Shown here one piece after another: positions 1 through 26,712 of a DNA stretch of 32,000 nucleotides. The DNA comes from Candidatus Lokiarchaeum ossiferum (GTDB taxonomy: Archaea; Asgardarchaeota; Lokiarchaeia; Sigyniarchaeales; Promethearchaeaceae). Numbering within the stretch: the stretch's first letter is position 1; every line of letters starts with the position of its first letter. Both the position numbers and the translations under genes were made by a program. The notes under the pieces were generated by a model that had not been told where the DNA came from, ran no database searches, and was given only the letters and a program-made list of their open reading frames with translations. The stretch is from assembly GCA_025839675.1 (NCBI GenBank), contig CP104013.1:5400001-5432000 (forward strand). Reading direction: 5' to 3'.

Positions 1-324
1 CCAATCTTCAATGAAATTTGGGGGGTATAAATTTTTAAATATTTGAACTATTTCGTGCATAGATTCTTTCATTGCTTTATTATTTTCTACTTTGATACCT
101 TTACCTATGATTAAGAGGTTATATGCTTGTACATGCTTTAATAATATAATTTCATCCCCAAATTCGATGCAATTCAATTCCTTTTTAGATAAATTTTTCC
201 CAAATTGATTAAGTGCACTAAAAAAACCTGCAAATAAATTTGGATCGCTATTTTGTTCTAGAGAGTAATTATAAATACATTTTCCCGAAGCATCAACTAT
301 CCATATTTCTGAAATGTCCACCAT
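1..324 (-). CDS. Longin/roadblock-like small regulatory-domain protein, paralog 1 (3' end cut by window edge)
   Basis: The minus-strand frame is open from ATG at 322-324 to position 1 (108 codons, hand-translated, no stops): MVDISEIWIVDASGKCIYNYSLEQNSDPNLFAGFFSALNQFGKNLSKKELNCIEFGDEIILLKHVQAYNLLIIGKGIKVENNKAMKESMHEIVQIFKNLYPPNFIEDW. It is absent from the ORF track because it runs off the window. It shares a motif order with ORFs 5177-5566 and 6464-7024: WIxD..G, then LFxGf..A...f, then I.F.d..I, then hydrophobic-G, then a helix. Confidence 0.6.
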   Translation of the reverse strand, partial: MVDISEIWIVDASGKCIYNYSLEQNSDPNLFAGFFSALNQFGKNLSKKELNCIEFGDEIILLKHVQAYNLLIIGKGIKVENNKAMKESMHEIVQIFKNLYPPNFIEDW

Positions 325-519
325 TCTACATCAATGTTGCTCTTATATGAAATTCATTATCAAAATTAATGGATCTCTGAATAAATATTGTTCACTTGTA
401 CCTTAAAATATTTCATGTTATTCCCGTGAATTTTACGAAATTAGGAATAATGTCTTAATCAGCAAAATTTACTAATTAGATTCTTAAAATTTAATTAGGA
501 TTCATGCAAACTAATATTC

Positions 520-1104
520 ATGCCCTTTACACCTTTTCATTTTGGAATCGCCCTTCCATGTATCTTTTGGGATTGGAAAAAGAAACGGGTCGATGCAATT
601 TCAGCATTAATAGGTACGGTTATTATTGATATTAGGGCAACGTATCTATTTCTTTTTGTTCCTTCAAACCGCCATTATCATGGCATTCTTCATAATTTTT
701 TGGTAGCCTTGATTCTTGGGATTTTGGTTGGGCTTTTTGTTCACGCAACCCGTAAATTTTGGAATAAAATTCTCAAATTAGGGAAATGGGAACAAACCAC
801 CTCTTTATTTTCTAAAATCCTTGTAGCCTGTATTTTTACTACAAGCCATATTCTTTTGGATTCTGCGATCTATTACTATGATCCAAATTGGGAATACTCA
901 ATGGAACCTTTATTACCTTTTGCTTCTGGTAATCCTCTCTATGGGTGGTTGGGATCAGTACAACCGACAAATCTCTGTATTTATGGATTTTTAATTGGTA
1001 TTGGTATGTATATCGGGTATTTATTTTGGTTTAATGGCTCACAAAAGATGATATCAAAGGATGTTGATGAAATTTTGGATTCTTTTGAAGATGAAGCAAA
1101 TTGA
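520..1104 (+). CDS. Integral membrane protein, DUF4184-like
   Basis: 194-aa ORF. The N-terminal MPFTPFHFG motif resembles DUF4184/YdjM-type membrane proteins (recalled family knowledge). It has several hydrophobic helices (LVALILGILVGLFV, LCIYGFLIGIGMYIGYLFWF). Confidence 0.55.
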   Translation: MPFTPFHFGIALPCIFWDWKKKRVDAISALIGTVIIDIRATYLFLFVPSNRHYHGILHNFLVALILGILVGLFVHATRKFWNKILKLGKWEQTTSLFSKILVACIFTTSHILLDSAIYYYDPNWEYSMEPLLPFASGNPLYGWLGSVQPTNLCIYGFLIGIGMYIGYLFWFNGSQKMISKDVDEILDSFEDEAN

Positions 1105-1225
1105 ATCTTCAAGATCAACTTTTTTATCTTTATATTATACTTCAACTAATTCTGAAGGCTTAGTTTAAAGCGATGACAAGTCCCGAATCGAAAGGTATAA
1201 TAAAGGACTTCACTATGAATTAACT

Positions 1226-1951
1226 ATGTTTCATAATCCCGATATTCACAATACGGAAGCGCCAAAAAAAGAAGAGGTAAATAAAGTTTTGGGGGATAAT
1301 GGCGACAGAATCCGGTTATCCAGTCCAATTGGTCAAGAATTGTTTACATGTCTATTTTGCACATTTCTTATGGGGATTATTTTCAATATTTTGCGATATT
1401 TTCTTCTAGGGCTTATCAGTCTTATGGTCATTTATCAACTCCTTTCAAAAACACGAATCGACGGCCAAAAGGTGCTGCTATATATGATCCAACATTCGCT
1501 ATTTTCGCCGTTCCATAAGTATATTTTGAGTAAGCATTATTTCATTATTTCAAATGGTGTGGTAGTCCAAAAATCACTTTCCCAGTACCAAAAAGAAAAC
1601 CAACCATTTTTGGTGGCCTTCATAAAATATCTGGCGAATCATCCGAAATATTTGGACCAGTTTGGGAATACTGCGCAAAAGCTCATAGTAGCGGCCAAAA
1701 ACGAGAATTATACTATTACAAGAATAAATGCACTAATGGACTATTATAGTCTGACCACCGAAGAATTGATTGATCAATATATTACCACTAAGCAAATCCT
1801 TGATCATCTCCAGCAGCGAATATTTATAGAAGCTGATGTAACTGATCGAGAAAAGTTGTACCGAGAATTAAATGCATCAGATCCACTATTATTAGCCTTT
1901 GAAAAATATCATAATATTGAGCTTAAAAGTGGGCTTGATATTATGAAATAA
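1226..1951 (+). CDS. Hypothetical membrane protein
   Basis: 241-aa ORF with two adjacent hydrophobic helices (LFTCLFCTFLMGIIFNIL, FLLGLISLMVIYQLL). The soluble C-terminal part carries no motif I recognise. Confidence 0.5.
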   Translation: MFHNPDIHNTEAPKKEEVNKVLGDNGDRIRLSSPIGQELFTCLFCTFLMGIIFNILRYFLLGLISLMVIYQLLSKTRIDGQKVLLYMIQHSLFSPFHKYILSKHYFIISNGVVVQKSLSQYQKENQPFLVAFIKYLANHPKYLDQFGNTAQKLIVAAKNENYTITRINALMDYYSLTTEELIDQYITTKQILDHLQQRIFIEADVTDREKLYRELNASDPLLLAFEKYHNIELKSGLDIMK

Positions 1952-2086
1952 ATGTGTTTCATTTGTAAAGAGGAATTATGGAGAAAAACGATCAAAAATA
2001 TGGGATTAATGATCGAAATCAGAAACTTTAAATAATATTCATTGCTTTCCGAATACATATTCACATAAAAACAGGTGATACTAACT

Positions 2087-2248
2087 ATGACTTGGATGAT
2101 AGATGAAGGATGTTATGGATGCGGACGCTGTACTTTTTGTAATGGAATAGAGATGGTAGGTAGCGTTGCTCAAATTGTTGATCAATCTGCGAATTGCATT
2201 GATAACGTGGCACAAATGTGCCCTGCTGGTATAATACACCAAATTTAA
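2087..2248 (+). CDS. Small [4Fe-4S] ferredoxin-like protein (53 aa), below the ORF-track size cut-off
   Basis: Hand translation gives MTWMIDEGCYGCGRCTFCNGIEMVGSVAQIVDQSANCIDNVAQMCPAGIIHQI. It has a C-x2-C-x2-C-x2-C cluster plus a distal C...CP. A GGTGA Shine-Dalgarno-like box at 2074-2078 lies 8 nt before the ATG. The stop is 18 nt upstream of the next gene. Confidence 0.55.
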   Translation: MTWMIDEGCYGCGRCTFCNGIEMVGSVAQIVDQSANCIDNVAQMCPAGIIHQI

Positions 2249-2266
2249 TTTGAGAGATACATAAAA

Positions 2267-2680
2267 ATGGACTCTAATTTTGGAAACATTAAATTTGCTG
2301 TTGGAACTGATGATAAACTAACTTATTCTGCCGATCATTTCGGTTCGGCGCAATTTTTTTTGATTTACACGCTAAATCTCCAAACTAAGGAGATAAAATT
2401 GCAAAAAACGATTGTGAATAAAACACCAGAGGAACATCGCCATGGTGATCCCCAAAAAGCCCTAAGTATATCTACACTCCTGCAAGGTATTCCAGTTTTG
2501 ATCGGAAGATACATGGGGAAAAATATCACTCGGATTCGGAAGAAATTTATTCCGATTATTGCATCGTTTGATTTAATTGACAAGTCCTTGGTAATTTTGC
2601 CCGATATAATTCCTGAAATTAGATCTGAATTGGAAAAACCTGGTGGGATACCAAAAAAAATCATCCATTTACGCTCTTAG
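2267..2680 (+). CDS. NifX/NifB-C-terminal-like (dinitrogenase FeMo-cofactor-binding domain family) protein
   Basis: 137-aa ORF. The N-terminus KFAVGTDDKLTYSADHFGSAQFFLIY matches the characteristic (K/R)IA(V/I)....G..v..HFG.a..F.iy signature of the PF02579-type domain (recalled). It sits next to a mini-ferredoxin, as is common for this family. Confidence 0.7.
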   Translation: MDSNFGNIKFAVGTDDKLTYSADHFGSAQFFLIYTLNLQTKEIKLQKTIVNKTPEEHRHGDPQKALSISTLLQGIPVLIGRYMGKNITRIRKKFIPIIASFDLIDKSLVILPDIIPEIRSELEKPGGIPKKIIHLRS

Positions 2681-3054
2681 ATCGGAAGATATGTGCTAAA
2701 ATTAATCAGATGGGATGGGCATTGTCAATTTCTTTTTTTAAATATTTGATATTCTTTGTAAAAGAAGATTAAAGTCTTGATTGTGATTATCACAATAACA
2801 TTAAATCCCAAAAGGCTGATTGAAAAGCGTTTCTTAGATGTAGGAATTTCTTGATGTCATGCGAAATCCAAAGAACAAACTAAATTGAAGACGCTAAGAT
2901 CTATTTTTTTTTTATATCCACTCATTTTCATTTCCTCATTGAATAAAACTTTTGTTTTTTGACCAATTAAAGAGTCACACTCTGAAAAATGATGGACCTT
3001 TGAGATCCTTCTTAACTAACAAATTTCATATTTCCCAGAAGATAATAAAAGAAT

Positions 3055-3303
3055 ATGGACAGTATTAGGGAGATAATTATAGATTTAGCTTTAAGGAATC
3101 ACATTTCTTTGAGTGAAGAAGCAATCATAGCTATAGAAAACATCCCAGAATTGAAATTTAAAGAAAAAAACTGGTTTGATATTTTAGAAGCTATCATAAT
3201 AGAAATGAAATATCATTTGGCGATTGTAGAACGAAACATTGCTCAAGCGGTAGATATAAAAAATGTTTGTGAGTCAATCGGAGTTGGATTTTCAAAAGAA
3301 TAA
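3055..3303 (+). CDS. Hypothetical small helical protein
   Basis: 82-aa ORF, convergent with the GTPase gene (stops 17 nt apart). I recognise no motif. Confidence 0.4.
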   Translation: MDSIREIIIDLALRNHISLSEEAIIAIENIPELKFKEKNWFDILEAIIIEMKYHLAIVERNIAQAVDIKNVCESIGVGFSKE

Positions 3304-3320
3304 AGAAATGAAAAAATAGC

Positions 3321-3950
3321 TTAAATCTCGCCTTTCGGACCTGTGGTCTGTCCGCCCGATTGTAAGCGCATATAATGCCGTAGAACGGCTTCTCGTGCTG
3401 CAAACACAAACGCTCGCTTCACATTCACACCCGTAATGGCGATTGTCTCATAGATCAAAACATTGCTCAATTTGGCTGCATTTAACACTTCACGAATCTT
3501 GTCGATCGGTGTCGGGTTGGGCACATCTCGTTTGTTTGCCATGAGTACTAATGGGACTTCAGCATTACCATCCGCTCCCGCCATCACCTTTGGGCCATAA
3601 AACTTTAGCAGTTCTTTAAGTGAATACAAGTTTTCTTCCCATTGATCCGCAGAAGAGTCCCAAGTAAAAATGACCGCATCAGAGCCTTTCAAGACTGTTT
3701 TACGTTGATATTTGTGGCGTCGTTGACCGGCGACGGTGTAACATTGGAAGACAACATTCGAAACCCGTGCCACAACACGATCAAAGAATAAGGTTCTTCC
3801 TGTAGGATCGGTGATTGATTGTAATTTGCCGCTAGCTAGCCCTTCCTTCTCGTAAATCCATCCTAAAGCGCATGTCTTCCCTCCCATCGAGGGCCCCCAG
3901 AACACGATCTTAAAGACTAAAGTATTATCCGCTCTTCTACTTGGACACAT
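3321..3950 (-). CDS. mglA: MglA-type Ras-superfamily small GTPase
   Basis: 209-aa ORF. Motifs: P-loop GPSMGGKT (G1), RTLFFD (switch I), YTVAGQ (G3 in the MglA-style T-V-x-G-Q form rather than DxxGQ), NKRD (G4). By eye it is collinear with Myxococcus MglA blocks recalled from memory (KIVYYGPGLCGKTTNL / RTLFFDF / LYTVPGQ / LKGVDGVVFV / NKRDLPN / TGVGV). The CDS is much more G+C-rich than its flanks. Confidence 0.9.
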   Translation of the reverse strand: MCPSRRADNTLVFKIVFWGPSMGGKTCALGWIYEKEGLASGKLQSITDPTGRTLFFDRVVARVSNVVFQCYTVAGQRRHKYQRKTVLKGSDAVIFTWDSSADQWEENLYSLKELLKFYGPKVMAGADGNAEVPLVLMANKRDVPNPTPIDKIREVLNAAKLSNVLIYETIAITGVNVKRAFVFAAREAVLRHYMRLQSGGQTTGPKGEI

Positions 3951-4596
3951 GGTTTTTTCTTCCTAGATAAATTGTTAAACTTTGTATAATAACAAAGTAG
4001 GTTTATAGTAATTATTAGTCTTTTGTTGCTTAAATGTTTTAATTTCGGATCAAGCGAAGTGGTCTGAAAAGGGCGAGGGGGAACGACAAAAATGCAAAAA
4101 AACAAGAATAAAGCAGAAAGAAAAAATGGTAAATGTGAAGATCTATGGTGGTAAGCGTTAGAATGGGGTATGATAAGGACATATTGGAGAATCAGAGATT
4201 CGAATATGTTGAATAAATATTTAATTTGAATGGGATCTTTTCTATGGGAAAATAAAGGGTGGAAATGAATTCCAATAGGATTACTACTTATTAGGCTCGG
4301 AAGAAAATAGGGCTTAGATTAATCCTTTTTTTTGGGAAAAAACGATGAAATTATAATACGAGGTGTTAAATTGGCGTCTTTTCATTAGTAAGAGAGAAAT
4401 TGGTTGTTTGGGTAAAAAAAATGGAACATATGGCAAAATGTGATTGCGGGTCGGAATTAATTGCCGATTCATTTTCCCAGCTAAAGAAAGCAGTGAATGA
4501 GCACGAGCGGAATTTTCATTGAATCAAACCAACAAACTATCTTTTTGAGATACATTTTTTCTCTTATTTATAATAGAAACTTTTTGATGAAATAGA

Positions 4597-4986
4597 CTAT
4601 TGGACCTTGATGACTTCCTTGTTGTCATTTACTTTATACAGTCCTTTCTGGGAATCCAAAACAACATATTGATGGTGCCAAGGATCTTGAAGAACGGCAC
4701 ATTTTCCAATATCAATATCAAAGGGGCCTGAGAGAATTGTTCCTCCAATGGTCGCGAAGTATTCGACAAATTTTTCAACATCATCGACTTTAAAATCGAG
4801 TTCAATTCCAGCTAAATCCGTATCCTCAGTGTATAGCACAATTTCAGACACATCTTTTTGCAATTTCAAGGCAACTGCAGTATTTGTTTTCCATAGGATG
4901 TCAAGTCCCAGTTTATGATGGTAGAAATCTAAACCATCTTGTAAATTGGGAACTTTTAGCCTAATACAATCTACTTTAGTAAACAT
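4597..4986 (-). CDS. VOC/glyoxalase-family protein
   Basis: 129-aa ORF. The N-terminus (IRLKVPNLQDGLDFYHHKLGLDILW) and the C-terminal half (GGTILSGPFDIDIGKCAVLQDPWHHQYVVL) fit the paired beta-alpha-beta-beta-beta VOC fold pattern. Confidence 0.7.
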   Translation of the reverse strand: MFTKVDCIRLKVPNLQDGLDFYHHKLGLDILWKTNTAVALKLQKDVSEIVLYTEDTDLAGIELDFKVDDVEKFVEYFATIGGTILSGPFDIDIGKCAVLQDPWHHQYVVLDSQKGLYKVNDNKEVIKVQ

Positions 4987-5176
4987 AGTTATTTGAAGGT
5001 AAAATTGGATATTTGTATTTTTCGATAATTTACAATCCCATGGAAGAAAACTTTTGCGTCAGGACCAACACCAGATCCTCCCTCATATAATCTCTTACAA
5101 AATTCATTTGATATTAGTCAAAAAGTAAAGCAAATCAATCAAACGAAATTCACGACGGTAGAGTGGGATTTTGAAG

Positions 5177-5566
5177 TTAAAAATATAATTTTTCGGTAAT
5201 TTCCTTGAAATAGTTAAAGATCGTCTGATCTCCAGCCCAACAATTAAGAATTTCTGCAAACTCCATAATGAATGCGTCTCGAATTTTGAATAAAATCTTT
5301 CGCACATTGAGATCTTTTTCTTTAATTTTTACTCTTCCCACGACAAAAAATTTGACTGGATCTTTAACTGGGACGATGATGATCTTAGAATCTTTCATTT
5401 TAATGGCATCAATGGCTTCTGCAGCCAAAGTTTCTACGGCAGTTAGAATTCCTGAAAAAAGAACGGGACTTACTTGTTGTCGGGAACTTATTTTGTCACT
5501 TTTTACGTGGACCAGAGCAAGTCCTGCTCGATCAATGATCCATAATTCCCATAATTTCGTTGCCAT
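5177..5566 (-). CDS. Longin/roadblock-like small regulatory-domain protein, paralog 2
   Basis: 129-aa ORF. LWELWIIDRAGLALVHV ... PVLFSGILTAVETLAAEA ... IDAIKMKDSKIIIV ... FFVVGRV ... then a C-terminal helix and W.GD..IF..F. This is the same motif order as 1-324 and 6464-7024. The predicted beta-beta-alpha-beta-beta-beta-alpha order fits a longin-type fold. Confidence 0.6.
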   Translation of the reverse strand: MATKLWELWIIDRAGLALVHVKSDKISSRQQVSPVLFSGILTAVETLAAEAIDAIKMKDSKIIIVPVKDPVKFFVVGRVKIKEKDLNVRKILFKIRDAFIMEFAEILNCWAGDQTIFNYFKEITEKLYF

Positions 5567-5687
5567 TTGCCTACCCCTTGGTTCTATTGTGTTCTACTTA
5601 ATTACTTGTTAGATAAGAAGAAAAATTAAAGATTTTTGGAGTTCTTTTAATCTCCTTAGTAATATTTGGATTTTGAATAATTTCTGG

Positions 5688-6140
5688 TTACTCTTCTGGT
5701 TCTATATTAATAATGCTCACTTCTTCGACGCGAGGGACTTTTAAAAACTCTTCTTTGATCCGGTCAATGGTAACTTTTCGAGTTTTAATGAGAGTACTAT
5801 CCAAATATGTTTCATAAAAACAATTGATTGATTCAAAACAGAGCCCTGTGGTGTGAATAGTTCCATCACCCAAATTAAAATTCTTCAATACATCCGAGAT
5901 TCCTTTTACTAAATCTGGAGAAAATTCTTTTAATCGGATGAGAATCTTTTGAATTGATGAATTTTCACAAGGGAACACTGAAATTTTAATTATATCATCC
6001 GCTGGGATATAAATCATCAAATAATATGGCGTAGACTTAATATGTGATTGAACTTTGCTGGGGATAAAGCCTGATGACTCAAACTTCGCCTTCGTAATTA
6101 ATTTACCAAATGAGATTTGTTTTTTTTCTGATACACCCAT
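5688..6140 (-). CDS. Hypothetical protein (possible ACT-like ligand-binding fold)
   Basis: 150-aa ORF upstream of, and on the same strand as, longin-like paralog 2. The segment SPDLVKGISDVLKNFNLGDGTIHTTG resembles the ACT-domain beta-alpha-beta core. This call is weak and pattern-based only. Confidence 0.45.
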   Translation of the reverse strand: MGVSEKKQISFGKLITKAKFESSGFIPSKVQSHIKSTPYYLMIYIPADDIIKISVFPCENSSIQKILIRLKEFSPDLVKGISDVLKNFNLGDGTIHTTGLCFESINCFYETYLDSTLIKTRKVTIDRIKEEFLKVPRVEEVSIINIEPEE

Positions 6141-6463
6141 ACGCGTATTCTCCTCGAGGAACCTAATTACTAATTGGGTAAAAGGCTATAAAAAATTTCG
6201 TAAATAGAGTTCAAATTATTCGGTGTATTTGGATAGGTTTTTTTTTATCCAATTGGAAAAAGAATTTCATCATTCAGTTCTGGCAAAGAATTGAAAAAAT
6301 TTATCAGAAAAAAGTTAAAGTAAACTAAAATGTTCATGAAATCAAAAAAAATCACTTGATGAAAGGTAATCATTGTTAATTCCATATATTATCGTGATAT
6401 TCTCGCCATGATAAGATACTTAAAATCAACAAGAAAAAGGAAATAAGGTAAGGAAGAAAACAT

Positions 6464-7024
6464 ATGAGGTCCACAAAAACAATTCCTTTCCATGCAATTT
6501 TTCTTATTGATAGCCGGAGTGGTTGTGATCTAATTAGTCAGAATTATTCTCAAAATATTTTTGATGTAGATATCATCTCTGGCATGTTAAAAGCGCTTGA
6601 AATGTTTGTAAGTCATTTGGCGTATTCTCAAAATTATGAACAATTGCAAGAAATTAATTTTCAAGGACTGCGAATTGTATATGAACGCTTAGGTCCTGTT
6701 TCTAGCTCGGTTCTTTGTGTAGGTATTTCCAAGAAAGAAGAAAACTTAGAATTGGAACACTTAATATTGAAAAATATTTTGGTTGAATTTTATTCGGCTT
6801 ATCATCCCTTCTTAACCGAATTTCATGGCGATGTTGTACCCTTTAGATCATTTAAAAAGCGTTTATTGCAATATCGGTTTGAATGGAATAATCTTTTAAC
6901 TCATTCTTCTCCGTCTATTGAAAATATGATTGAACAAATGTCTATGGAAATGTATAGAACCCCTCAAGTTGTTCGGTCTCCATCTTTTCCCAAATTCCAT
7001 GGATTTCAGAAAATAGTTGATTAA
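6464..7024 (+). CDS. Longin/roadblock-like small regulatory-domain protein, paralog 3 (with C-terminal extension)
   Basis: 186-aa ORF. HAIFLIDSRSGCDLISQNY ... DIISGMLKALEMFVSHL ... LQEINFQGLRIVYERL ... VLCVGISK ... LEHLILKNILVEFYSAY. This is the same motif order as the other two paralogs. Confidence 0.6.
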   Translation: MRSTKTIPFHAIFLIDSRSGCDLISQNYSQNIFDVDIISGMLKALEMFVSHLAYSQNYEQLQEINFQGLRIVYERLGPVSSSVLCVGISKKEENLELEHLILKNILVEFYSAYHPFLTEFHGDVVPFRSFKKRLLQYRFEWNNLLTHSSPSIENMIEQMSMEMYRTPQVVRSPSFPKFHGFQKIVD

Positions 7025-7105
7025 ATTCACCTTTGCGGTATTGGTCATTATTTGAAGGGAATTCAATTCTTCAATCTTTTTATATCTTCTCTCTAATATT
7101 TATTC

Positions 7106-8200
7106 ATGCTTATAATTTGTCCCATTGCTGGAGTTGGATCTTTTTTACAGCCCTTTACAGTATCAAAACCAAAAGCAATGATAAAAATTGCCGGTAAACG
7201 CATAATTGATCATACTCTCCAATTACTGAAGGACAATTTTCCTCCAGAAACTAAAATATGTTTCATTGTGGGTTATAAAAAACGAATTATAATTGAATAC
7301 ATTTCTGAACATTACGGGGAATATTTTAATCTTATATTTGAAGAGCAAAATCCAATAGCATATGATGGTGATATTCCACTATTTGCGGGGATCGGGGATG
7401 CCATTCGCTTAGCTGGGAAATATGGTAGAGGGGATGATTGTTTTATTTTTTTTAGCGATCATTTTCCAACTGAAGATTTCCTTCCTATGATTAAGATGCT
7501 TGAAAACACCAAGTTTGATGGAGTTGTAAATGTTCGGGAAGTAGAAAATCCTCAACAATATGGAGTGTGTGAAGTTGATTCAAATAATACAATTACTCGA
7601 GTTGTTGAAAAACCGACAAACCCGAAGTCTAATCTCGCAATCACTTGGGGGTATGTATTTAGCAAGCGAATAACGCATCAGATATTCGATAATCTTGATA
7701 AATTGGTCCATGATAACTTTAATCTTCAAAAAAATATTGATTTTACGGGAACTATACAATGTCTTATCAATTCAGGGGCAAAAATAGGTGTGAATGTGAT
7801 GAAATCACCCATTCTCGATTTTGGACAGATAGATGATTTCCTCCGCGGAAATAATTTTCTCTTGAACCAACAATTGAAAACAAGGACTGATAAGGGTGAA
7901 AATATATATGAAACTATGCTTCGGTCCAACGAACTTCAAAACACCTCCATTATACCTCCAGTTTTCCTTGGAAAAAATTGCAACCTCACAAATTCGGTCA
8001 TTGGACCGAATGTTTCTATTGGGGATAACACGGTGATAACAAAGTGTATTATTTCGAATTCTGTTATTGGGGACTGCACATCTATGGAAAATATCATCAC
8101 TGAATCTTCGGTTATTGGAGATTTTGTGAGCATGGAAGATTTAATTAAGAATTCTATCTCCATTGGTGATTCTTCCAGCATTATGAAAACTTTAGATTAA
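7106..8200 (+). CDS. Sugar-phosphate nucleotidyltransferase with C-terminal left-handed beta-helix (hexapeptide-repeat) domain
   Basis: 364-aa ORF. The N-terminus PIAGVGSFLQPFTVSKPKAMIKIAGKRIIDH aligns to the GxGTRLxPLT..xPKPM..i.gkp signature. The C-terminus carries repeated [LIV]-G-x4 hexapeptides (VIGPNVSIGDNTVITKCIISNSVIGDCTSMENIITESSVIGDFVSMEDLIKNSISIGD). Confidence 0.8.
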   Translation: MLIICPIAGVGSFLQPFTVSKPKAMIKIAGKRIIDHTLQLLKDNFPPETKICFIVGYKKRIIIEYISEHYGEYFNLIFEEQNPIAYDGDIPLFAGIGDAIRLAGKYGRGDDCFIFFSDHFPTEDFLPMIKMLENTKFDGVVNVREVENPQQYGVCEVDSNNTITRVVEKPTNPKSNLAITWGYVFSKRITHQIFDNLDKLVHDNFNLQKNIDFTGTIQCLINSGAKIGVNVMKSPILDFGQIDDFLRGNNFLLNQQLKTRTDKGENIYETMLRSNELQNTSIIPPVFLGKNCNLTNSVIGPNVSIGDNTVITKCIISNSVIGDCTSMENIITESSVIGDFVSMEDLIKNSISIGDSSSIMKTLD

Positions 8201-8240
8201 TCCATATTTTTTTACTCCTTCCTTCATTAGCTAAAGCATA

Positions 8241-9092
8241 ATGGTAGGTTTTGATCAATTTTCAGGTGCCAAGAAATACATTGTAAGTCCTGAATTGAAA
8301 AGTATTGTGAATGTTGCGATTGCGTTAGAGCGTCCTTTGCTTGTCAAAGGGGAACCTGGTACTGGAAAAACATTGCTTGCACATGCGATTGCAGAATCTT
8401 TAGAAAAGAAATTATATATCTGGAATGTGAAGAGTTCTACGAAAGCCATCGATGGGTGTTACATTTATGATACAGTACAACGTCTTAATGATTCTCGCTT
8501 TGGTTCAAATTCGCGTAATGTGGACAGTGTGGAAGATTATATTGTGATGGGAAAATTAGGGCAATCTTTTGAATCTGATGAGCAAGTTGTTTTGCTTATT
8601 GATGAGATTGATAAGGCCGATCCAGAATTTACCAACGATTTATTGCAAGAATTGGATATAATGGAGTTCTATATTCAAGAACTTCAAAAAACAATCAAAG
8701 CAAAACATCGTCCTATCGTAATTATTACTTCGAATAATGAAAAAGAACTTCCTGATGCATTTTTAAGAAGATGTGTGTTTCATTATATTACTTTTCCTAC
8801 TCCAGATCTTATGCGTTCCATAGTACAAGTTCATTATCCTCGAATAAAAGAAATCTTATTGGAAAATTGTCTTTCTCGCTTTTATCTTCTCCGTGAATTG
8901 AATCAATTACGGAAAAAACCAAGTACATCTGAATTGATTGATTGGATTGGGGTGTTAATGAAAGCGGGGCTTACTGAAGATGATGTTCGAGATAAAATTC
9001 CCTTCCTTGGCACATTGATTAAAAAAGAAATTGATTTAAATTATTTACAGAAATACAAACAAGAATTAATCGGATTGGTTAAGGATAATTGA
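8241..9092 (+). CDS. MoxR-family AAA+ ATPase (AAA_5/CoxD-like)
   Basis: 283-aa ORF. Walker A GEPGTGKT, Walker B VVLLIDEIDKA, sensor-1 region IVIITSNN, and LPDAFLRRC as is typical of MoxR-type ATPases. A VWA gene follows 36 nt downstream. Confidence 0.85.
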   Translation: MVGFDQFSGAKKYIVSPELKSIVNVAIALERPLLVKGEPGTGKTLLAHAIAESLEKKLYIWNVKSSTKAIDGCYIYDTVQRLNDSRFGSNSRNVDSVEDYIVMGKLGQSFESDEQVVLLIDEIDKADPEFTNDLLQELDIMEFYIQELQKTIKAKHRPIVIITSNNEKELPDAFLRRCVFHYITFPTPDLMRSIVQVHYPRIKEILLENCLSRFYLLRELNQLRKKPSTSELIDWIGVLMKAGLTEDDVRDKIPFLGTLIKKEIDLNYLQKYKQELIGLVKDN

Positions 9093-9128
9093 AGATATAG
9101 AATTTCATATCGCTGGGAGAGACTATTA

Positions 9129-10310
9129 ATGTTTGTTGAATTCTATTATGTGTTAAGGAATACTAAAATACCTGTGTCCATTACAGAGTTTTTATCCCTG
9201 ATGGATGCTATTTCTAAAAACTTGATCCTTAATAGTACTCAATTTTATTATATCGCACGTAGTTTATTAGTAAAAGATGAAAAATATTATGATCTATTTG
9301 ATGAAACATTCATGTATTATTTCCGAGGAGCAGACATCCCCTTAGCAATTAAAGATGACATATTTAAATGGTTAGAAAAACCAAAATCTTCTTTTTTTGA
9401 TAATCTACAACTTACTCCAGAAGAACGTGAGTTACTTGAAAAATATGACTGGGAAGAATTGAAGAAACAATTTGAAGCCAGGATTCAAGAGCAATTAGAA
9501 GAACATAATGGAGGCAATTATTGGATTGGCACTCGCGGAAAATCTCCATTTGGGTGGGGTGGGCAACATCCTGCTGGAATACGTGTAGGGGGTTGGGGTG
9601 GGATGAAATCTGCAATAAAAATAGCTCAGAAGCGGCAATTTAGGGATTATCGATCAGATCGCATTTTAGATACTCGCCAAATTCAGGTGGCTTTGAGAAA
9701 ATTACGTAGATTAAGTAAAATTGGGGCTCCCGATGAATTAAATCTTGATAAAACTATTGATGAAACATGTCGTCAAGGGGGAGAAATTGAATTTATTTGG
9801 GAGAAACGCAAGAAAAACAATTTGAAATTACTATTACTAATGGATGTGGGGGGGAGTATGGACCCATTCACTTATATGGTGGAACAATTGTTTTCGGCTG
9901 CGAATAAATCAAACCATTTTAAGAAATTCAAACATTTTTATTTTCATAATTGTATCTATAATAATCTCTATGAGAGTGCGGAATTATGGCATGATAAAAA
10001 GATTCCTCTTCCTGAAATTTTTCAAAAATTTGATAAAGATTATAGAGTTGTATTGGTGGGGGATGCTGCAATGGCCCCATATGAATTAATGATGAAATAC
10101 GGAGCGATAGATTATTATCAACAGAACGAAACAGCGGGAATCGAGTGGCTACACCGATTTAAAAAACATTTTTCTCATTCTGTATGGTTAAATCCCGAAG
10201 TGCCGGGTCCATGGATCTCTGAATCCCGTAAAATTATTTCCAAAATTTTTCCTATGTATCAATTAAGTCTTGATGGCTTGGAAGAAGCCATCTCTAAATT
10301 AATTCGTTAA
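9129..10310 (+). CDS. VWA domain protein (CoxE-like), partner of the MoxR ATPase
   Basis: 393-aa ORF. MIDAS-type motif LLLLMDVGGSMD. A Gly/Trp-rich segment (GTRGKSPFGWGGQHPAGIRVGGWGG ... RQFRDYR) is typical of CoxE-like VWA proteins (recalled). The MoxR-VWA gene pairing is conserved. Confidence 0.8.
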   Translation: MFVEFYYVLRNTKIPVSITEFLSLMDAISKNLILNSTQFYYIARSLLVKDEKYYDLFDETFMYYFRGADIPLAIKDDIFKWLEKPKSSFFDNLQLTPEERELLEKYDWEELKKQFEARIQEQLEEHNGGNYWIGTRGKSPFGWGGQHPAGIRVGGWGGMKSAIKIAQKRQFRDYRSDRILDTRQIQVALRKLRRLSKIGAPDELNLDKTIDETCRQGGEIEFIWEKRKKNNLKLLLLMDVGGSMDPFTYMVEQLFSAANKSNHFKKFKHFYFHNCIYNNLYESAELWHDKKIPLPEIFQKFDKDYRVVLVGDAAMAPYELMMKYGAIDYYQQNETAGIEWLHRFKKHFSHSVWLNPEVPGPWISESRKIISKIFPMYQLSLDGLEEAISKLIR

Positions 10311-10332
10311 AACATCTTCAAAAATCGAGAGT

Positions 10333-11118
10333 TTATTCTGTTTCTTTTTTTTCCCATGCAATTAAAGCGGCCCCGAGAGCGCCCGTTAGTTGTGGTTGCG
10401 AAGGAATTTTGATTTTCATGTTTAATTTTTCTTCAAGAGCTTTCTTAACTGCTGAATTGTGGGCAACTCCCCCACAAAAGATTAATGGGGTCTGACAATC
10501 GAGTCTTAAAGCCATATTTCCTACACGTTTTGCAATTGATTGGTGTAACCCTGCTGCAATATCCTCTTTTTTTGCCCCTCTTGCAAATAGACCAATTATT
10601 TCAGATTCCGCGAAAACGGTGCACATTGATGAAATATTTTCGGGATTCTCACTTTTTAATGACAATTCTCCAAATTGTTCTATTGGAACTTGTAAAGCTT
10701 TCGCCATCACTTCCAAAAATCGTCCTGTACCTGCAGCACATTTATCATTCATCTGAAAATCTAAAACATTCTTCGATTTCTTAGATATGATAATAACTTT
10801 TGAATCTTGCCCTCCAATATCGATAATTGTTTTGGCTTTAGGAAAATAATATTGGACTCCTCTCGCATGGGCCGATATTTCAGTGATTTTCTCTTCATTT
10901 AACTTGAGATTTGAATGGCGTCCATATCCTGTAAGCATAATTTTTTGAATTTGATCTTTTTGTAGATTGTTTTTTTGGATAATTTTGTAAAAAATTTTTT
11001 TCCCACTGTCTTGAAAATTATAAGTTGACCTCTCAATCAAAAAATCAACAATCTTACCATTTTTTAGTAAAACAACCTTTGTTGTTAATGAGCCTATATC
11101 AATTCCAATAAAAAACAT
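10333..11118 (-). CDS. BadF/BadG/BcrA/BcrD-type ATPase (2-hydroxyacyl-CoA dehydratase-activator-like)
   Basis: 261-aa ORF. ASKHA-fold N-terminus GIDIGSLTTKVVLL, DIGGQDSKVI, and the two cluster-bridging Cys contexts NDKCAAGTGRFLE and SSMCTVFAESE characteristic of HgdC-type activases. Confidence 0.85.
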   Translation of the reverse strand: MFFIGIDIGSLTTKVVLLKNGKIVDFLIERSTYNFQDSGKKIFYKIIQKNNLQKDQIQKIMLTGYGRHSNLKLNEEKITEISAHARGVQYYFPKAKTIIDIGGQDSKVIIISKKSKNVLDFQMNDKCAAGTGRFLEVMAKALQVPIEQFGELSLKSENPENISSMCTVFAESEIIGLFARGAKKEDIAAGLHQSIAKRVGNMALRLDCQTPLIFCGGVAHNSAVKKALEEKLNMKIKIPSQPQLTGALGAALIAWEKKETE

Positions 11119-23509: not shown

Positions 23510-25048
23510 TTAGATTTTTTCAAGAGTCATTCCTCCCAAAATCTGGGGTAAATGCGCATTATAATATTCAACGGCCTTTTTTAGACGGTGTTCACTATCG
23601 GAATAAATTTTAAAGATAACTTCTCCTTTTTCCGTATTTTGACCGATTTTTCGGAGTATTTCGATTCCTGCCTTTTTGGCTGCTGGACATCCTGCAATCT
23701 TTGCAATGCGATTAATATGCTCATTTTCTACTGAAGTAATAAATCCATCAAAAGACGCTTTCATTTCTGCCACAAATGGTCCCACTTCAATATTTTTAGG
23801 CAAAATGTCTGGGTTTCCTCCTTGAGCTTTTATCATTCGTTTCATAGCTGTATAAGCTTGTCCAGAATTAAGGATCTCTAAGGCGAGATCTTTTCCTTGA
23901 CCTTCTTGTGCTTTTCCTGCCATTTCTAAAAGAATTCCTGCAAGTTCACACGATTTATTTCGAAGACTAGATGGTCCTTCTAATGGATTAATAAGAAGGT
24001 TCATCGCTTCTCGAGCTTCCAAAGCAGGTCCTACAGCATGACCAATCGGTTGAGATGCATTTGTTAAGAGACAAACGGTTTGAATTCCAACCTTTTGGGC
24101 AATATCTTTAAATCTGATAGCGTATTTCTTACCATCTTCTAAGGTGGGAAACTTGGTTCCTTTTCCACAAGGAATGTCAAGTACTAATTTTTTTACACCC
24201 ATTGACATCTTTTTACAAATAATTGATGCTATCATTAGCGGAAACGGATCCATGGTCAGTGGTTTTTCTATTCGTATTAATGCATTATCAGCAGGCGCTG
24301 AATCCAGAGCACCTCCCCACAAAATACCACATTTTTCCGTTTTTAAAATTTCCAATACTTTTTCTTTGGAAAATGCAACAGGTGCTAGTACTTCAAATGA
24401 ATCTGCTGTGCCAGAAGGTGATGTAATTGCACGGGTTGATGTTTTTGGAATAAATAATCCCGCAGCTGCAATTATTGGGACAATAATTAATGTAACTTTA
24501 TTTCCTGGAACTCCACCTGTTGAATGTTTATCATAAACCTCTGATCCAAAATCTAAAACTTCTCCTGAGTGGGCCATGGCATTAGTAAGATCTACAACTT
24601 CCCGATCAGTAGCCCCTCGGACTTCCAAACCAATAATGAATGATGCTTTTTCAATGTCGAGTAATCGCTCATGAGTACAATCATTGATGATATCTTGAAT
24701 TTCTTGAGTGCTTAGTTCTTTTCCTTTTACTTTTGCCTTAATAGCCAAGAAAGAATTAGGTTTTGAAGAGAGTTGAACATCTATTCCCTTATAATCATTA
24801 GAGAGCTTCAATTTCTCATAAACTTCGTCATATAAACCCATTGTCCCACGCGATAACATTTTTTCTCCTGTTGCAATATCAACAACTGCAATGATACCTG
24901 GTTCTAATTTAGTTCCATCGGTTTTATATGGGATTAATCTGACACGATCTCCTGGTTTTGCTCCCAATTCAAATGCATCTTCATCGTCTAAGACTATTAT
25001 CTTTACTGCTCCACTGGATATGCCTAGTTTTCTAAACTTGAATTTCAT
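23510..25048 (-). CDS. deoA: AMP phosphorylase (archaeal DeoA-type, thymidine-phosphorylase family with N-terminal extension), copy 1
   Basis: 512-aa ORF. Nucleoside-phosphorylase-II signature DKHSTGGVPGNK and TSPSGTADS. An ~85-aa N-terminal extra domain and a ~500-aa length are typical of archaeal AMP phosphorylases rather than ~440-aa bacterial thymidine phosphorylases. Confidence 0.85.
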   Translation of the reverse strand: MKFKFRKLGISSGAVKIIVLDDEDAFELGAKPGDRVRLIPYKTDGTKLEPGIIAVVDIATGEKMLSRGTMGLYDEVYEKLKLSNDYKGIDVQLSSKPNSFLAIKAKVKGKELSTQEIQDIINDCTHERLLDIEKASFIIGLEVRGATDREVVDLTNAMAHSGEVLDFGSEVYDKHSTGGVPGNKVTLIIVPIIAAAGLFIPKTSTRAITSPSGTADSFEVLAPVAFSKEKVLEILKTEKCGILWGGALDSAPADNALIRIEKPLTMDPFPLMIASIICKKMSMGVKKLVLDIPCGKGTKFPTLEDGKKYAIRFKDIAQKVGIQTVCLLTNASQPIGHAVGPALEAREAMNLLINPLEGPSSLRNKSCELAGILLEMAGKAQEGQGKDLALEILNSGQAYTAMKRMIKAQGGNPDILPKNIEVGPFVAEMKASFDGFITSVENEHINRIAKIAGCPAAKKAGIEILRKIGQNTEKGEVIFKIYSDSEHRLKKAVEYYNAHLPQILGGMTLEKI

Positions 25049-25173
25049 GGTTAATCAACAAAGATAAATTGCATTTCCACCCTTTATTTGTTTGGGTAAA
25101 GCGTGTGTTATCATAAATAATAAAAAGAATTGGCAAATCCCGAAAAAAAATCACTTTATAGAAAAAAGGAGTA

Positions 25174-26712
25174 TTAGATTTTCTCGATGGTCATGCTTGC
25201 AAAATTGAAAACTGGATGGGAATTATAATATTCCACTGCTTTTTTCAGCTGAGAATCTGTTGGGGCATAAATCTTCAAGATAGTATCTCCAAGTTGAACT
25301 TTATGTCCAATTTTGTGTTCAATTTCTATGCCTGCTGATTTTGAAGCAGGGCATCCTGCAATTTTAGCAATGCTGTTAATGTGTCTATTATTAACTTCTG
25401 ATATTATTCCTTGTATATCTGCTTTCATTTCTGCAATATAAGGCCCTACGGTTATATCCTCTGGAAGAATATCGGGAAAACCTCCTTGAGTACGAATAAG
25501 TTGTTTCATTTCATCATATGCTTTTCCCGATTTAAGAATATCCGTTGCATATTCTTTACCCTTGCCTTCTGGAGCTTTTCCTGCCATTTCTAGAAGTGCT
25601 CCTGCTAAATCTGTTGATTTGTTTAAAAGGCTTGACGGTCCTACAGATGGATCAATAAGTAAGCGCAAAGCTTCTCTTGCTTCTAATGCTGGTCCTACAG
25701 CATGACCAATGGGTTGTGATGCAGAAGTTAGCAAACATGTGCACTCAATTCCAACACGGGCTGCAATTTCTTTAAATTGTCGAGCAAATTTCCGACCAAT
25801 TTCTACCGTCGGAAATTTAGTTCCTGGTCCTACAGGAATATCCATCGTCAAAATTTTTACGCCCATACTTAATTTTTTGGCCAAAATAGATGCAATCATT
25901 ATCGGTAATGGGTCGATATTAAGTGATTTCTCAATCTTTATAAAAATATCCGCAGCAGGGGCTGATTTCATGGCTCCAGCCCAAAATATTCCCGCTTTTT
26001 TAGATTCCAAAATATTTAAGATTTCTTCTTTGGTGAATGAAACGGATGCAAGTACTTCCATGCTATCGGCTGTTCCAGATGGGGAAGTTATTGCCCTTGT
26101 TGATGTTTTTGGGATCAGTAAGCCTGCAGATGCTATTATGGGGACTATAATTAATGTGATTTTATTTCCAGGAACTCCTCCCGTACTGTGTTTATCATAA
26201 ACATTTGGTCCTAAATCAAGAATATCTCCAGAATGGGTAAAAGCATAGGTAAAATCTACAATTTCGTTTTCAGTTAATCCATGAATTTCAACGCCAGTTA
26301 TAAAAGAAGCTAACTCTATTCCCAACAACCTTTCATCCACACAATCATTGACAATTCCCAATATCTCTTGAGTCGAAAGTTCTTTTCCTTTGATTTTTTT
26401 TCGAATTGCGGCATATGATTTGGGTTTTGAGGATAAAAAGATTTCAATATTCTTATCATCTTCCCCTAAAGCTAATTTATCTTTTACTTCGTCATATACA
26501 CCTACTTCTCCCGGTTCCACAATTCCAGAACCAGTCGCTAGATCTACAATCGCAATTATTCCTGGTTCTATCAATGTCCCATCTAAATTCTTTTTAAAAA
26601 TTCTTACTCGACTTCCCGGTTTAGCATTAATTTTGAAAGCATCTTCATCATCTAAAATGATTATGTTAATTCCACCAGATGCTAACCCTAGTTTTTTTTT
26701 CCTTAATTGCAA
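25174..26712 (-). CDS. deoA: AMP phosphorylase paralog, copy 2 (apparent TTG start)
   Basis: 512-aa ORF that aligns without gaps to copy 1 and has the same DKHSTGGVPGNK / TSPSGTADS core. The aligned N-terminus begins at TTG 26710-26712, and there is no in-frame ATG nearby. Confidence 0.85.
   Translation of the reverse strand: MQLRKKKLGLASGGINIIILDDEDAFKINAKPGSRVRIFKKNLDGTLIEPGIIAIVDLATGSGIVEPGEVGVYDEVKDKLALGEDDKNIEIFLSSKPKSYAAIRKKIKGKELSTQEILGIVNDCVDERLLGIELASFITGVEIHGLTENEIVDFTYAFTHSGDILDLGPNVYDKHSTGGVPGNKITLIIVPIIASAGLLIPKTSTRAITSPSGTADSMEVLASVSFTKEEILNILESKKAGIFWAGAMKSAPAADIFIKIEKSLNIDPLPIMIASILAKKLSMGVKILTMDIPVGPGTKFPTVEIGRKFARQFKEIAARVGIECTCLLTSASQPIGHAVGPALEAREALRLLIDPSVGPSSLLNKSTDLAGALLEMAGKAPEGKGKEYATDILKSGKAYDEMKQLIRTQGGFPDILPEDITVGPYIAEMKADIQGIISEVNNRHINSIAKIAGCPASKSAGIEIEHKIGHKVQLGDTILKIYAPTDSQLKKAVEYYNSHPVFNFASMTIEKI

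Follow-up and report, generated by a model that had tools for sequence, protein, structure and literature searches.

A divergent three-gene longin cluster near an MglA-type GTPase gene in Candidatus Lokiarchaeum ossiferum

The 32,000-nucleotide stretch of the Candidatus Lokiarchaeum ossiferum genome considered here (contig CP104013.1, positions 5,400,001 to 5,432,000, hereafter the window) carries within its first 7 kb a gene for a small GTPase of the MglA family, three genes for small proteins that we call P1, P2, and P3, and, between the last two, a gene for a protein of 150 amino acids (aa). A preliminary description, made from the sequence alone, had proposed that the GTPase and the three small proteins constitute a single GTPase-regulatory module. 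The genes it listed, a VOC gene at 4597-4986 and a 646-bp gap among them, all lie exactly where it placed them, and those on which the argument turns are the following, in window coordinates.

1..324, minus strand: P1 (NEF87_004588), longin paralog 1, read from its translation, the C-terminal 33 aa being lost at the window edge
3321..3950, minus strand: MglA-family small GTPase (NEF87_004594), 209 aa, from PDB sequence search and Pfam
5177..5566, minus strand: P2 (NEF87_004596), longin paralog 2, 129 aa, from AlphaFold2 (AF2) model and Foldseek
5688..6140, minus strand: 150-aa protein (NEF87_004597), "ACT-like" in the preliminary description, 121 bp upstream of P2
6141..6463: intergenic stretch from which the 150-aa gene and P3 diverge
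6464..7024, plus strand: P3 (NEF87_004598), longin paralog 3, 186 aa, from AF2 model and Foldseek

The missing end of P1 is supplied by a longer Logan contig that contains the window (L001), on which the complete gene, at L001:9380-9805, encodes 141 aa. This full-length P1 is 100% identical to NEF87_004588, as P3 is to NEF87_004598.

Sequence comparison identifies P1, P2, and P3 as true and ancient paralogs. The common order of motifs seen in them earlier is real and beyond chance, as BLASTP, profile comparison, and joint alignment all indicate: P1 and P2 match at 1e-6, P2 and P3 at 3e-3, and P1 and P3 at 0.02, while P1 finds orthologs of P2 at 1e-8 to 1e-9, an ortholog of P3 at 1.5e-8, and the hidden Markov model (HMM) of the family at 3e-34. 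The P2 and P3 families align with each other in hhalign at an E value of 8.6e-5 over 115 columns, and a joint alignment of 23 sequences is collinear, with D12, G15, G39, A43, I55, G77, F99, G112, F117, and F120 (P2 numbering) kept throughout. They are the positions that the preliminary description had pointed out: the first hairpin keeps D..G, the first helix LFSG..A, strand 3 an isoleucine, and strand 5 a VG at its end, and the alignment closes on a long helix followed by a W-G-D...F..F turn. Since their mutual identity is about 20-24%, these are diverged paralogs, as had been supposed, and old ones rather than recent tandem copies.

On the evidence of AF2 models, the fold of P2 and P3 is that of the longins and not of the roadblocks. 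The P2 model, built from 98 sequences, has a mean predicted local distance difference test score (pLDDT) of 88.2 and a predicted TM score (pTM) of 0.84, with strands at residues 7-12, 17-22, 54-56, 60-67, and 73-80 and helices at 34-47, 85-107, and 114-128. That of P3, from 16 sequences, reaches a pLDDT of 68 overall and 80-90 in the core (pTM 0.68), with strands at 9-16, 22-27, 63-66, 69-76, and 83-89 and helices at 35-52, 95-119, and 129-146; it amounts to a longin core plus a C-terminal tail of about 40 aa that is modeled at low confidence, as disordered. Both models run beta-beta-alpha-beta-beta-beta-alpha-alpha without an N-terminal helix, which is the longin side of the distinction between longin and roadblock topologies set out in PMC10933270. 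P1 is placed in the longin family by homology. The longin half of the earlier by-eye assignment to a longin- or roadblock-like fold thus stands for P2 and P3, and the roadblock half falls to topology and to the Pfam results given below.

A Foldseek search of AF2 models, the check that had been proposed for this assignment, gave longins as the best matches of P2 and P3, with roadblocks close behind. Against the PDB, P2 matched the TRAPP subunits Bet5/Trs23 at 7.7e-5 (2j3t_C) and an AP-3 small-chain-like entry at 1.4e-4, followed by MglB (2.9e-4), LAMTOR (3e-4), and Mon1-Ccz1 (7e-4); P3 matched zeta-COP at 1e-5 (3tjz_C), then sigma-adaptins, Mon1 (3e-4), MglB (4e-4), Fuzzy, and TRAPP. In these results roadblock proteins (MglB, LAMTOR, and one from an Asgard archaeon) are scattered among the longins, at E values of 1e-5 to 1e-3 and TM scores of 0.4-0.63. 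By itself the fold search thus leads no further than the longin/roadblock superfamily, and it is topology together with sequence profiles that places the proteins on its longin branch. Among 98 family members searched against Pfam, 31 matched Fuz_longin_1 (best 1.8e-8), eight Intu_longin_1, seven Longin, and three Sybindin, and the best Fuz_longin_1 match (protein P0168) passes the cut-off with 34.9 bits against 26.1. Robl_LC7, the roadblock profile, was matched by one of the 98, at 0.018, and by none of the window proteins. The family is nearest to the first longin domain of Mon1/Fuzzy/HPS1 and to the longins of TRAPP and of adaptor small chains. UniRef names P1 (identical to family member P0032), P2, and P3 "FUZ/MON1/HPS1 first Longin domain-containing protein", so the longin assignment already stands in a public database. 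Profile searches with the P2, P3, and 150-aa families against all PDB chains returned no meaningful match. A division of P2 and P3 into a "Mon1-like" and a "Ccz1-like" partner was also considered and found no footing, the matches being sub-threshold and inconsistent (a relative of P1 to Intu_longin_1 at 5.5e-4, relatives of P3 to Fuz_longin_1 at 0.04-0.09).

What the relatives conserve is the arrangement around P2 and P3. Our sample comprised 11 distinct genomes or contigs, namely the window, L002/L008 (Ca. Harpocratesius repetitus), L004, L006, L007, L009, L010/L014, L021, L092, L093, and L094, and in nine of them P3 lies on one strand with the 150-aa gene and then P2 on the other; L007 lacks P3 at this place and L094 lacks P2. 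The divergent pairing of the 150-aa gene with P3 recurs in L002, L004, L006, L009, L010, L014, L021, and L092-L094, and the intergenic region at 6141..6463 is probably a shared bidirectional promoter region. When aligned, these regions (window, L002, L004, L006, L010, and L021) have in common only a T-rich, TATA-like stretch ahead of the 150-aa gene, besides one or two words that resemble GATAATAT. A GATAATAT repeat was dropped as a candidate element, its five occurrences in the window not being an enrichment over the 3.25 expected.

The 150-aa protein is the least familiar member of this trio. Its orthologs are 59-77% identical and always adjoin P2, P3, or both, and neither Pfam, NCBIfam, PADLOC, nor PDB sequence searches matched it (six orthologs, Pfam and NCBIfam to E<=10). 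An ACT domain has the order beta-alpha-beta-beta-alpha-beta. The "ACT-like" label given to the protein earlier reflects a pattern seen by eye, with no match to an ACT profile, and the notion that it is another longin is ruled out by hhalign against the longin family.

The searches indicate that the P3/150-aa/P2 cluster is confined to a narrow clade of the Lokiarchaeia, at about the level of Lokiarchaeum and Harpocratesius. A collection of 5.8 billion proteins yielded 12 P2 orthologs, all without a Pfam domain, and a search with the P2-family alignment found only four loci among GTDB species genomes; P3 gave 19 homologs. For P1, a word-based search returned three homologs only, at >=85% identity, and no ortholog outside the close relatives of L. 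ossiferum. These low numbers mark the trio as a young invention restricted to its clade, and P1 as an extra copy specific to its lineage, a singleton without conserved context.

The longin family to which the three proteins belong is far larger than the cluster itself. A profile of the P1, P2, and P3 families collects 3292 cluster representatives at E<=1e-3 (473 at 1e-10), most of them single-domain proteins of 120-200 aa. In four of the 20 multi-domain members scanned (P0097, P0143, P0152, and P0168) the longin domain is N-terminal to a GTPase domain of Ras/Arf type; such longin-GTPase fusions are known in Asgard archaea (PMC10933270; Liu et al., bioRxiv 10.1101/2020.10.19.343400), and a GTPase-related role for the family is plausible from these architectures. 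The family's longins also occur in other company, with two longin copies joined to a TIR domain, at the C-terminus of long TPR arrays in proteins of 540-700 aa, and inside giant proteins of 1500-2200 aa with CARDB and DUF5915 (examples of these are P0095, P0076, P0179, P0064, and P0102). Such architectures are untypical of membrane-traffic regulators.

We consider it moderately probable, at roughly 0.6, that the functional unit at this locus is the divergent P3/150-aa/P2 cluster of longins from an Asgard-expanded family, rather than a GTPase with three longins. Longin and roadblock proteins form dimers that provide a platform for small GTPases, in the capacity of guanine nucleotide exchange factors (GEFs), GTPase-activating proteins (GAPs), or scaffolds (PMC10933270). 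From this established behavior, with support from the family's own GTPase fusions, we infer that P2 is most likely joined with P3 in a longin heterodimer, on which a small GTPase would most likely dock or be regulated, be it by a GEF, a GAP, or a scaffold function. The 150-aa protein would then be a third or accessory subunit, or a sensor. The MglA-type GTPase is a candidate client since it lies within 10 kb of the trio in most genomes of the clade, and this neighbor is nonetheless unlikely to be the GTPase on which the longins act. A still more specific proposal, in which P2 and P3, possibly with the 150-aa protein, would make up a minimal heterodimeric longin exchange factor or GAP for the neighboring MglA, we regard as conceivable and quite improbable.

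The identity of that neighbor is itself well supported. Compared with solved structures, the product of 3321-3950 matches Myxococcus and Thermus MglA best (5e-25 to 5e-22, residues 12-183), with Rab7 as the next family at 2e-6, and in Pfam it matches Arf at 2e-8 and Ras at 6.5e-8. It has a P-loop at G19-T26, Arg52-Thr53, the G3 motif T72-V-A-G-Q76, and N139-K-R-D142. Its GRTLFFD aligns with DRTLFFD of MglA, placing Arg52 at the position of the intrinsic arginine finger beside the G2 threonine, and its YTVAGQ aligns with YTVPGQ, Thr72 replacing the usual G3 aspartate and the catalytic Gln76 being kept; NKRD is kept as well, and the stretch from G1 to G2 is collinear with bacterial MglA. An intrinsic arginine finger by the G2 threonine and a TVxGQ G3 motif are the marks of Group 1 MglA proteins (Wuichet & Sogaard-Andersen 2014, PMC4316618). 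The gene is, on its motifs, that of an MglA-family GTPase, as the preliminary description had recognized, and of a Group-1-like one; a cluster mate of the protein carries the name MglA in IMG. A small group of "MglA bacterial-like GTPases" has been reported in a Lokiarchaeon (Tran et al. 2024, PMC10933270), which together with the collinear G1-G2 stretch suggests a bacterial-type gene. Its orthologs are 88-93% identical where the P2, P3, and 150-aa proteins are 42-66% identical (44-60% for P2) and the neighbors overall 42-76%. Among the 1-kb blocks of the first 30 kb, the one around it (3001-4000) is highest in G+C content, at 0.396 compared with about 0.33. Conservation and composition would fit a gene that is very strongly constrained or highly expressed, or possibly one that is foreign and bacterial-type by origin.

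Of 449 MglA genes surveyed, 390 (87%) were coupled to mglB within four genes (PMC4316618). The four genes on one side of the window GTPase encode the 82-aa, NifB/X-like, 53-aa, and 241-aa products, and those on the other side are VOC, P2, the 150-aa gene, and P3; none of them is a roadblock (MglB) gene, so the GTPase is an "orphan" MglA in the sense of that survey. Within the same distance stand two longins, whose models superpose on MglB (E 3e-4 to 4e-4), and these circumstances speak for the alternative put forward in the preliminary description, that the MglA-type GTPase and the three longins form one dedicated module in which the longins would replace the roadblock GAP MglB or act as a GEF. 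An ortholog of the GTPase is found 0.8-10 kb from the trio in seven of the 11 genomes and within 2 kb in four of them. On the P2 side the distance is 1.2 kb in the window, 1.5 kb in L021, 1.9 kb in L010/L014, 5.2 kb in L092, 7.3 kb in L006, and 9.6 kb in L002, and in L094 the ortholog lies 0.8 kb from the 150-aa gene.

Proximity of this kind is nevertheless loose. The genes between GTPase and trio vary (VOC in the window, elsewhere an 83-aa plus a 452-aa gene, a resolvase-bearing insert, or an ABC transporter), the GTPase is convergent in L092 and L094, and no ortholog lies within the 6-10 kb of available flank in L004, L007, L009, or L093; the earlier statement that the genes are not one operon is borne out by these differences. 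The resolvase-bearing insert is that of Ca. Harpocratesius repetitus, where it lies between P2 and the GTPase (L002 10999-17041) and also includes DUF285 and fragments of MerR and peptidase_S8; it is probably a mobile element that accounts for the 9.6-kb spacing. The whole neighborhood is collinear among these genomes, with DNA ligase, histidine phosphatase (His_Phos), AAA+, VWA, and gyrase genes, so inherited gene order suffices to explain the proximity. The conservation figures show no sign of co-evolution (88-93% for the GTPase, 42-60% for the longins), P1 is absent from the other genomes, and the family's fusions are to GTPases other than MglA.

The linkage was also examined from the side of the GTPase, in 80 metagenomic loci whose orthologs are 64-94% identical to it. 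Longin-family HMM matches occurred at L014, L021, and L019 only. At L019, on a contig only 3 kb long, the GTPase ortholog (1966-2571, 75% identity) has 1.2 kb upstream of it a 137-aa longin (346-759), which is closest to P1 (2e-12) and is the one observation from a more distant genome that favors a dedicated module. The conserved neighbors of the GTPase are of a housekeeping kind, a metallophosphoesterase at 50 loci, a 308-aa protein at 37, a DEAD-box helicase at 30, and gyrA at 24, and no roadblock-sized gene is conserved beside it at any of the 80. Synteny with MglA-type GTPases, which the preliminary description had named as a test, is thus present at shallow depth and loose (seven of 11 genomes of the clade) and fails at greater depth, and the claim of a four-gene regulatory module gives way before the loose linkage, the near absence of longins at distant GTPase loci, and the solitary P1. 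We regard a dedicated module as distinctly unlikely. The association of the GTPase with the trio is loose and lineage-specific, and may be a matter of inherited gene order.

Some of the evidence weighs against the reading that we favor, the divergent longin trio as a unit working with a small GTPase. Around the 73 loci whose GTPase orthologs fall below 85% identity (64-79%), 571 kb of flanking sequence contain one longin, that of L019. P1, P2, and P3 themselves have no Pfam match at E<=1 in the copy searched, falling below the gathering thresholds, and the Foldseek scores are modest and do not separate longin from roadblock, a separation that comes from topology and from the profiles that relatives match in Pfam. 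The GTPase domains fused to family members have the canonical WDxxG(Q/S) G3 motif and are Rab/Arf-like rather than MglA-like, so these fusions tie the longin family to small GTPases generally and not to MglA. Finally, the AAA+/VWA or nucleotidyltransferase genes that follow P3 are steadier partners than the GTPase, and the role of the cluster could be unrelated to GTPases.

A simpler account holds that P1 and the GTPase lie near P2 and P3 by chance or historical accident, only the P2/150-aa/P3 trio being meaningful. Lokiarchaeal genomes hold dozens of longin/roadblock domains and dozens to about 100 small GTPases (PMC10933270; for the GTPases also Liu et al., bioRxiv 10.1101/2020.10.19.343400), an enrichment in longin eukaryotic signature proteins (ESPs) has been noted for L. 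ossiferum (PMC9834061), and in strain MK-D1 small GTPase genes generally lie outside operons with roadblock or longin genes (Tran et al., PMC10933270). By simple arithmetic, about 100 GTPase genes spread over 6 Mb would place one in roughly every ninth segment of 7 kb, and this abundance weakens the case from clustering where the GTPase is concerned; the lack of a conserved context for P1 is in keeping with accident as well. The longins are another matter, since their family is sparse in the sampled flanks, with a background of about one gene per several hundred kilobases (one in 571 kb), and three copies in 7 kb are a real local excess. The GTPase, moreover, stays near the trio in seven of 11 genomes despite local rearrangements. 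We take accidental proximity of P1 and the GTPase to be possible, if somewhat doubtful.

The genes behind P3 bring in a further alternative. In the window they lie on its strand as follows.

7106-8200, plus strand: sugar-1-phosphate nucleotidyltransferase (Pfam)
8241-9092, plus strand: MoxR-like AAA+ ATPase (Pfam AAA, AAA_5)
9129-10310, plus strand: VWA/CoxE-like protein (Pfam VWA_CoxE)

The gaps from P3 through these genes are 81, 40, and 36 bp, and P3 and the three genes (7106..10310) are possibly an operon. An AAA_5-type ATPase followed by a VWA-domain protein (8241-10310) is the arrangement of MoxR AAA+/VWA systems, and against NCBIfam the ATPase matched a MadB-family AAA-type ATPase at 4.7e-34, below the cut-off. 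Behind P3 the pair recurs on its strand, at gaps of 7-112 bp, in the window (there after the nucleotidyltransferase), L002, L004, L009, and L010/L014, and both proteins are 60-76% identical across these genomes. The runs from P3 to VWA are these.

Window 6464-10310
L002 6290-9111
L004 6548-9202
L009 560-3269
L010 4504-7238

From this one might take P3, perhaps the whole trio, to be an adaptor or substrate-recognition subunit of a MoxR AAA+/VWA chaperone-like remodeling system that works independently of any GTPase. The pair is missing behind P3 in L006, L092, L093, and L094, however; a nucleotidyltransferase follows P3 in L006, L021, and L093, and neither it nor the pair does so in L092 and L094. 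We came across no known example in which a longin domain works together with a MoxR/VWA system, the recurrent fusion partner of the longin family is a small GTPase, and PADLOC returned generic AAA matches only, on which ground a reading of the cluster as a defense system was rejected as well. A role in such a remodeling system seems very unlikely to us.

The remaining features of the window, listed below from the P1 side onward, lie outside the trio.

Next after P1 in gene order: DUF4184/DUF8201 membrane protein
After the DUF4184/DUF8201 gene: 241-aa protein
Between the 241-aa gene and the NifB/X-like gene: 53-aa open reading frame (ORF)
Between the 53-aa ORF and the 82-aa gene: NifB/X-like protein
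3055-3303, convergent to the GTPase with 17 bp between stop codons: 82-aa protein, an all-helical ORF
3951..4596: 646-bp non-coding gap upstream of the GTPase, with no credible ORF
4597..4986, minus strand: VOC/glyoxalase-family gene (Pfam Glyoxalase, 7.5e-8)
23510-25048 and 25174-26712, minus strand: tandem 512-aa paralogs with glycosyl-transferase family 3 and PYNP_C domains

The 82-aa ORF at 3055-3303 has a homolog in none of the fetched loci and no family match, and may be a lineage-specific gene or no gene at all. The 646-bp gap (3951-4596) presumably holds the GTPase's own promoter, and a search for RNA elements over 1-10500, this gap included, gave no Rfam match. VOC stands between P2 and the GTPase in this genome only, outside the conserved unit, and is not at this position in L002, L004, L006, L010, or L092. 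In these five relatives a conserved helical protein of 82-84 aa (48-77% identical) is encoded convergent to P2, at the following places.

L002 10436-10687
L004 10402-10656
L006 12225-12473
L010 8400-8651
L092 6588-6836

It has no homolog anywhere in the 32-kb window, where VOC (4597-4986) takes its place, and a reading of it as an MIT domain is unsupported, Pfam giving sub-threshold TPR-like matches only. The tandem 512-aa paralogs (23510-26712), far from the cluster, are thymidine- or AMP-phosphorylase-like.

Almost nothing is known about which regulator serves which Asgard GTPase, and for matching the two gene order is seldom of help (Tran et al. 2024, PMC10933270). A trio found in the cultured L. 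ossiferum, often near a strongly conserved MglA-type GTPase, is in this respect a concrete and cheap set of candidates for assays. If the pairing of these longins with the GTPase held true, it would provide a longin dimer acting on a prokaryotic GTPase, which bears on the origin of the eukaryotic longin GEFs and GAPs. An archaeal MglA switch would then be under the control of longins instead of the roadblock MglB, and these longins would be analogous, as free-standing proteins, to the longin core that is catalytic in Mon1-Ccz1-type RabGEFs. As it stands, the analysis adds members to known families and overturns nothing. The parts belong to families already annotated and discussed, and what may be new is possibly the trio together with its loose, clade-restricted proximity to an orphan MglA; neither that proximity nor the P3/150-aa/P2 trio is described in the literature we searched, the coverage of which is incomplete.

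Expansions of longin, roadblock, and small-GTPase genes in Asgard archaea have been described since 2015-2017. Among the systems that this locus resembles, the fusions of longin or roadblock domains with GTPases in these archaea are closest by descent, representing the same superfamily expansion in the same phylum, with members of the very family at hand serving as N-terminal longins of Ras/Arf-type GTPases. The scale of the expansion is considerable, with 130 roadblock-superfamily and 94 small-GTPase Asgard clusters of orthologous genes (asCOGs) among the 329 trafficking-class ESP asCOGs (bioRxiv 10.1101/2020.10.19.343400), and it includes a conserved operon of a LAMTOR1-like roadblock, a Rab-like GTPase, and DENN (Liu et al., bioRxiv 10.1101/2020.10.19.343400). 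The genes described here differ in being separate and loosely linked, in the MglA type of the GTPase, and in having no DENN or LAMTOR1-like gene with them.

In bacteria MglB is the roadblock-dimer GAP of MglA. The window GTPase shares the defining motifs of MglA, its closest solved relative being MglA of Myxococcus and Thermus, and the logic would be similar, a dimer from the longin/roadblock superfamily regulating a Ras-like switch; the models of P2 and P3 superpose on MglB at about 3e-4. MglB, however, has the roadblock order alpha-beta-beta-alpha-beta-beta-beta with an N-terminal helix, whereas P2 and P3 are without this helix and have two C-terminal ones, and the longin genes are here neither adjacent to the GTPase nor co-transcribed with it.

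The small chains of TRAPP and of the adaptor complexes offer a likeness of another kind. Bet5/TRAPPC1, Trs23/TRAPPC4 (Sybindin), sigma-adaptin, and zeta-COP are the best Foldseek matches of P2 and P3, and each of them is a single-domain longin, similar in size, that works as one subunit of a pair. In contrast to those complexes, neither a Bet3/TRAPPC3-like (V4R) gene nor one for an adaptor large subunit is found nearby in the window, and Sybindin is matched by only three of 98 relatives.

With the Mon1 type, comprising Mon1/Fuzzy/HPS1 and Ccz1/Inturned/HPS4 (Fuz_longin_1, PF19036, and Intu_longin_1, PF19031), P2 and P3 share fold and topology. The longin domains of Mon1, MON1A, Fuzzy, and Mon1-Ccz1 are among their Foldseek matches, Fuz_longin_1 and Intu_longin_1 are the profiles matched by 31 and 8 of the 98 relatives, and the UniRef names are taken from this domain. 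The window proteins themselves stay below the Pfam thresholds, and they differ from the tri-longin RabGEFs, which have three consecutive longins per subunit, a GEF site made by the paired first longins, and clients of the Rab7/Rab23/Rab32 type, in that P1, P2, and P3 (141, 129, and 186 aa) have one longin each. Two different paralogs set side by side, as P2 and P3 are, nonetheless recall the heterodimer in which longins of the Mon1 type are joined.

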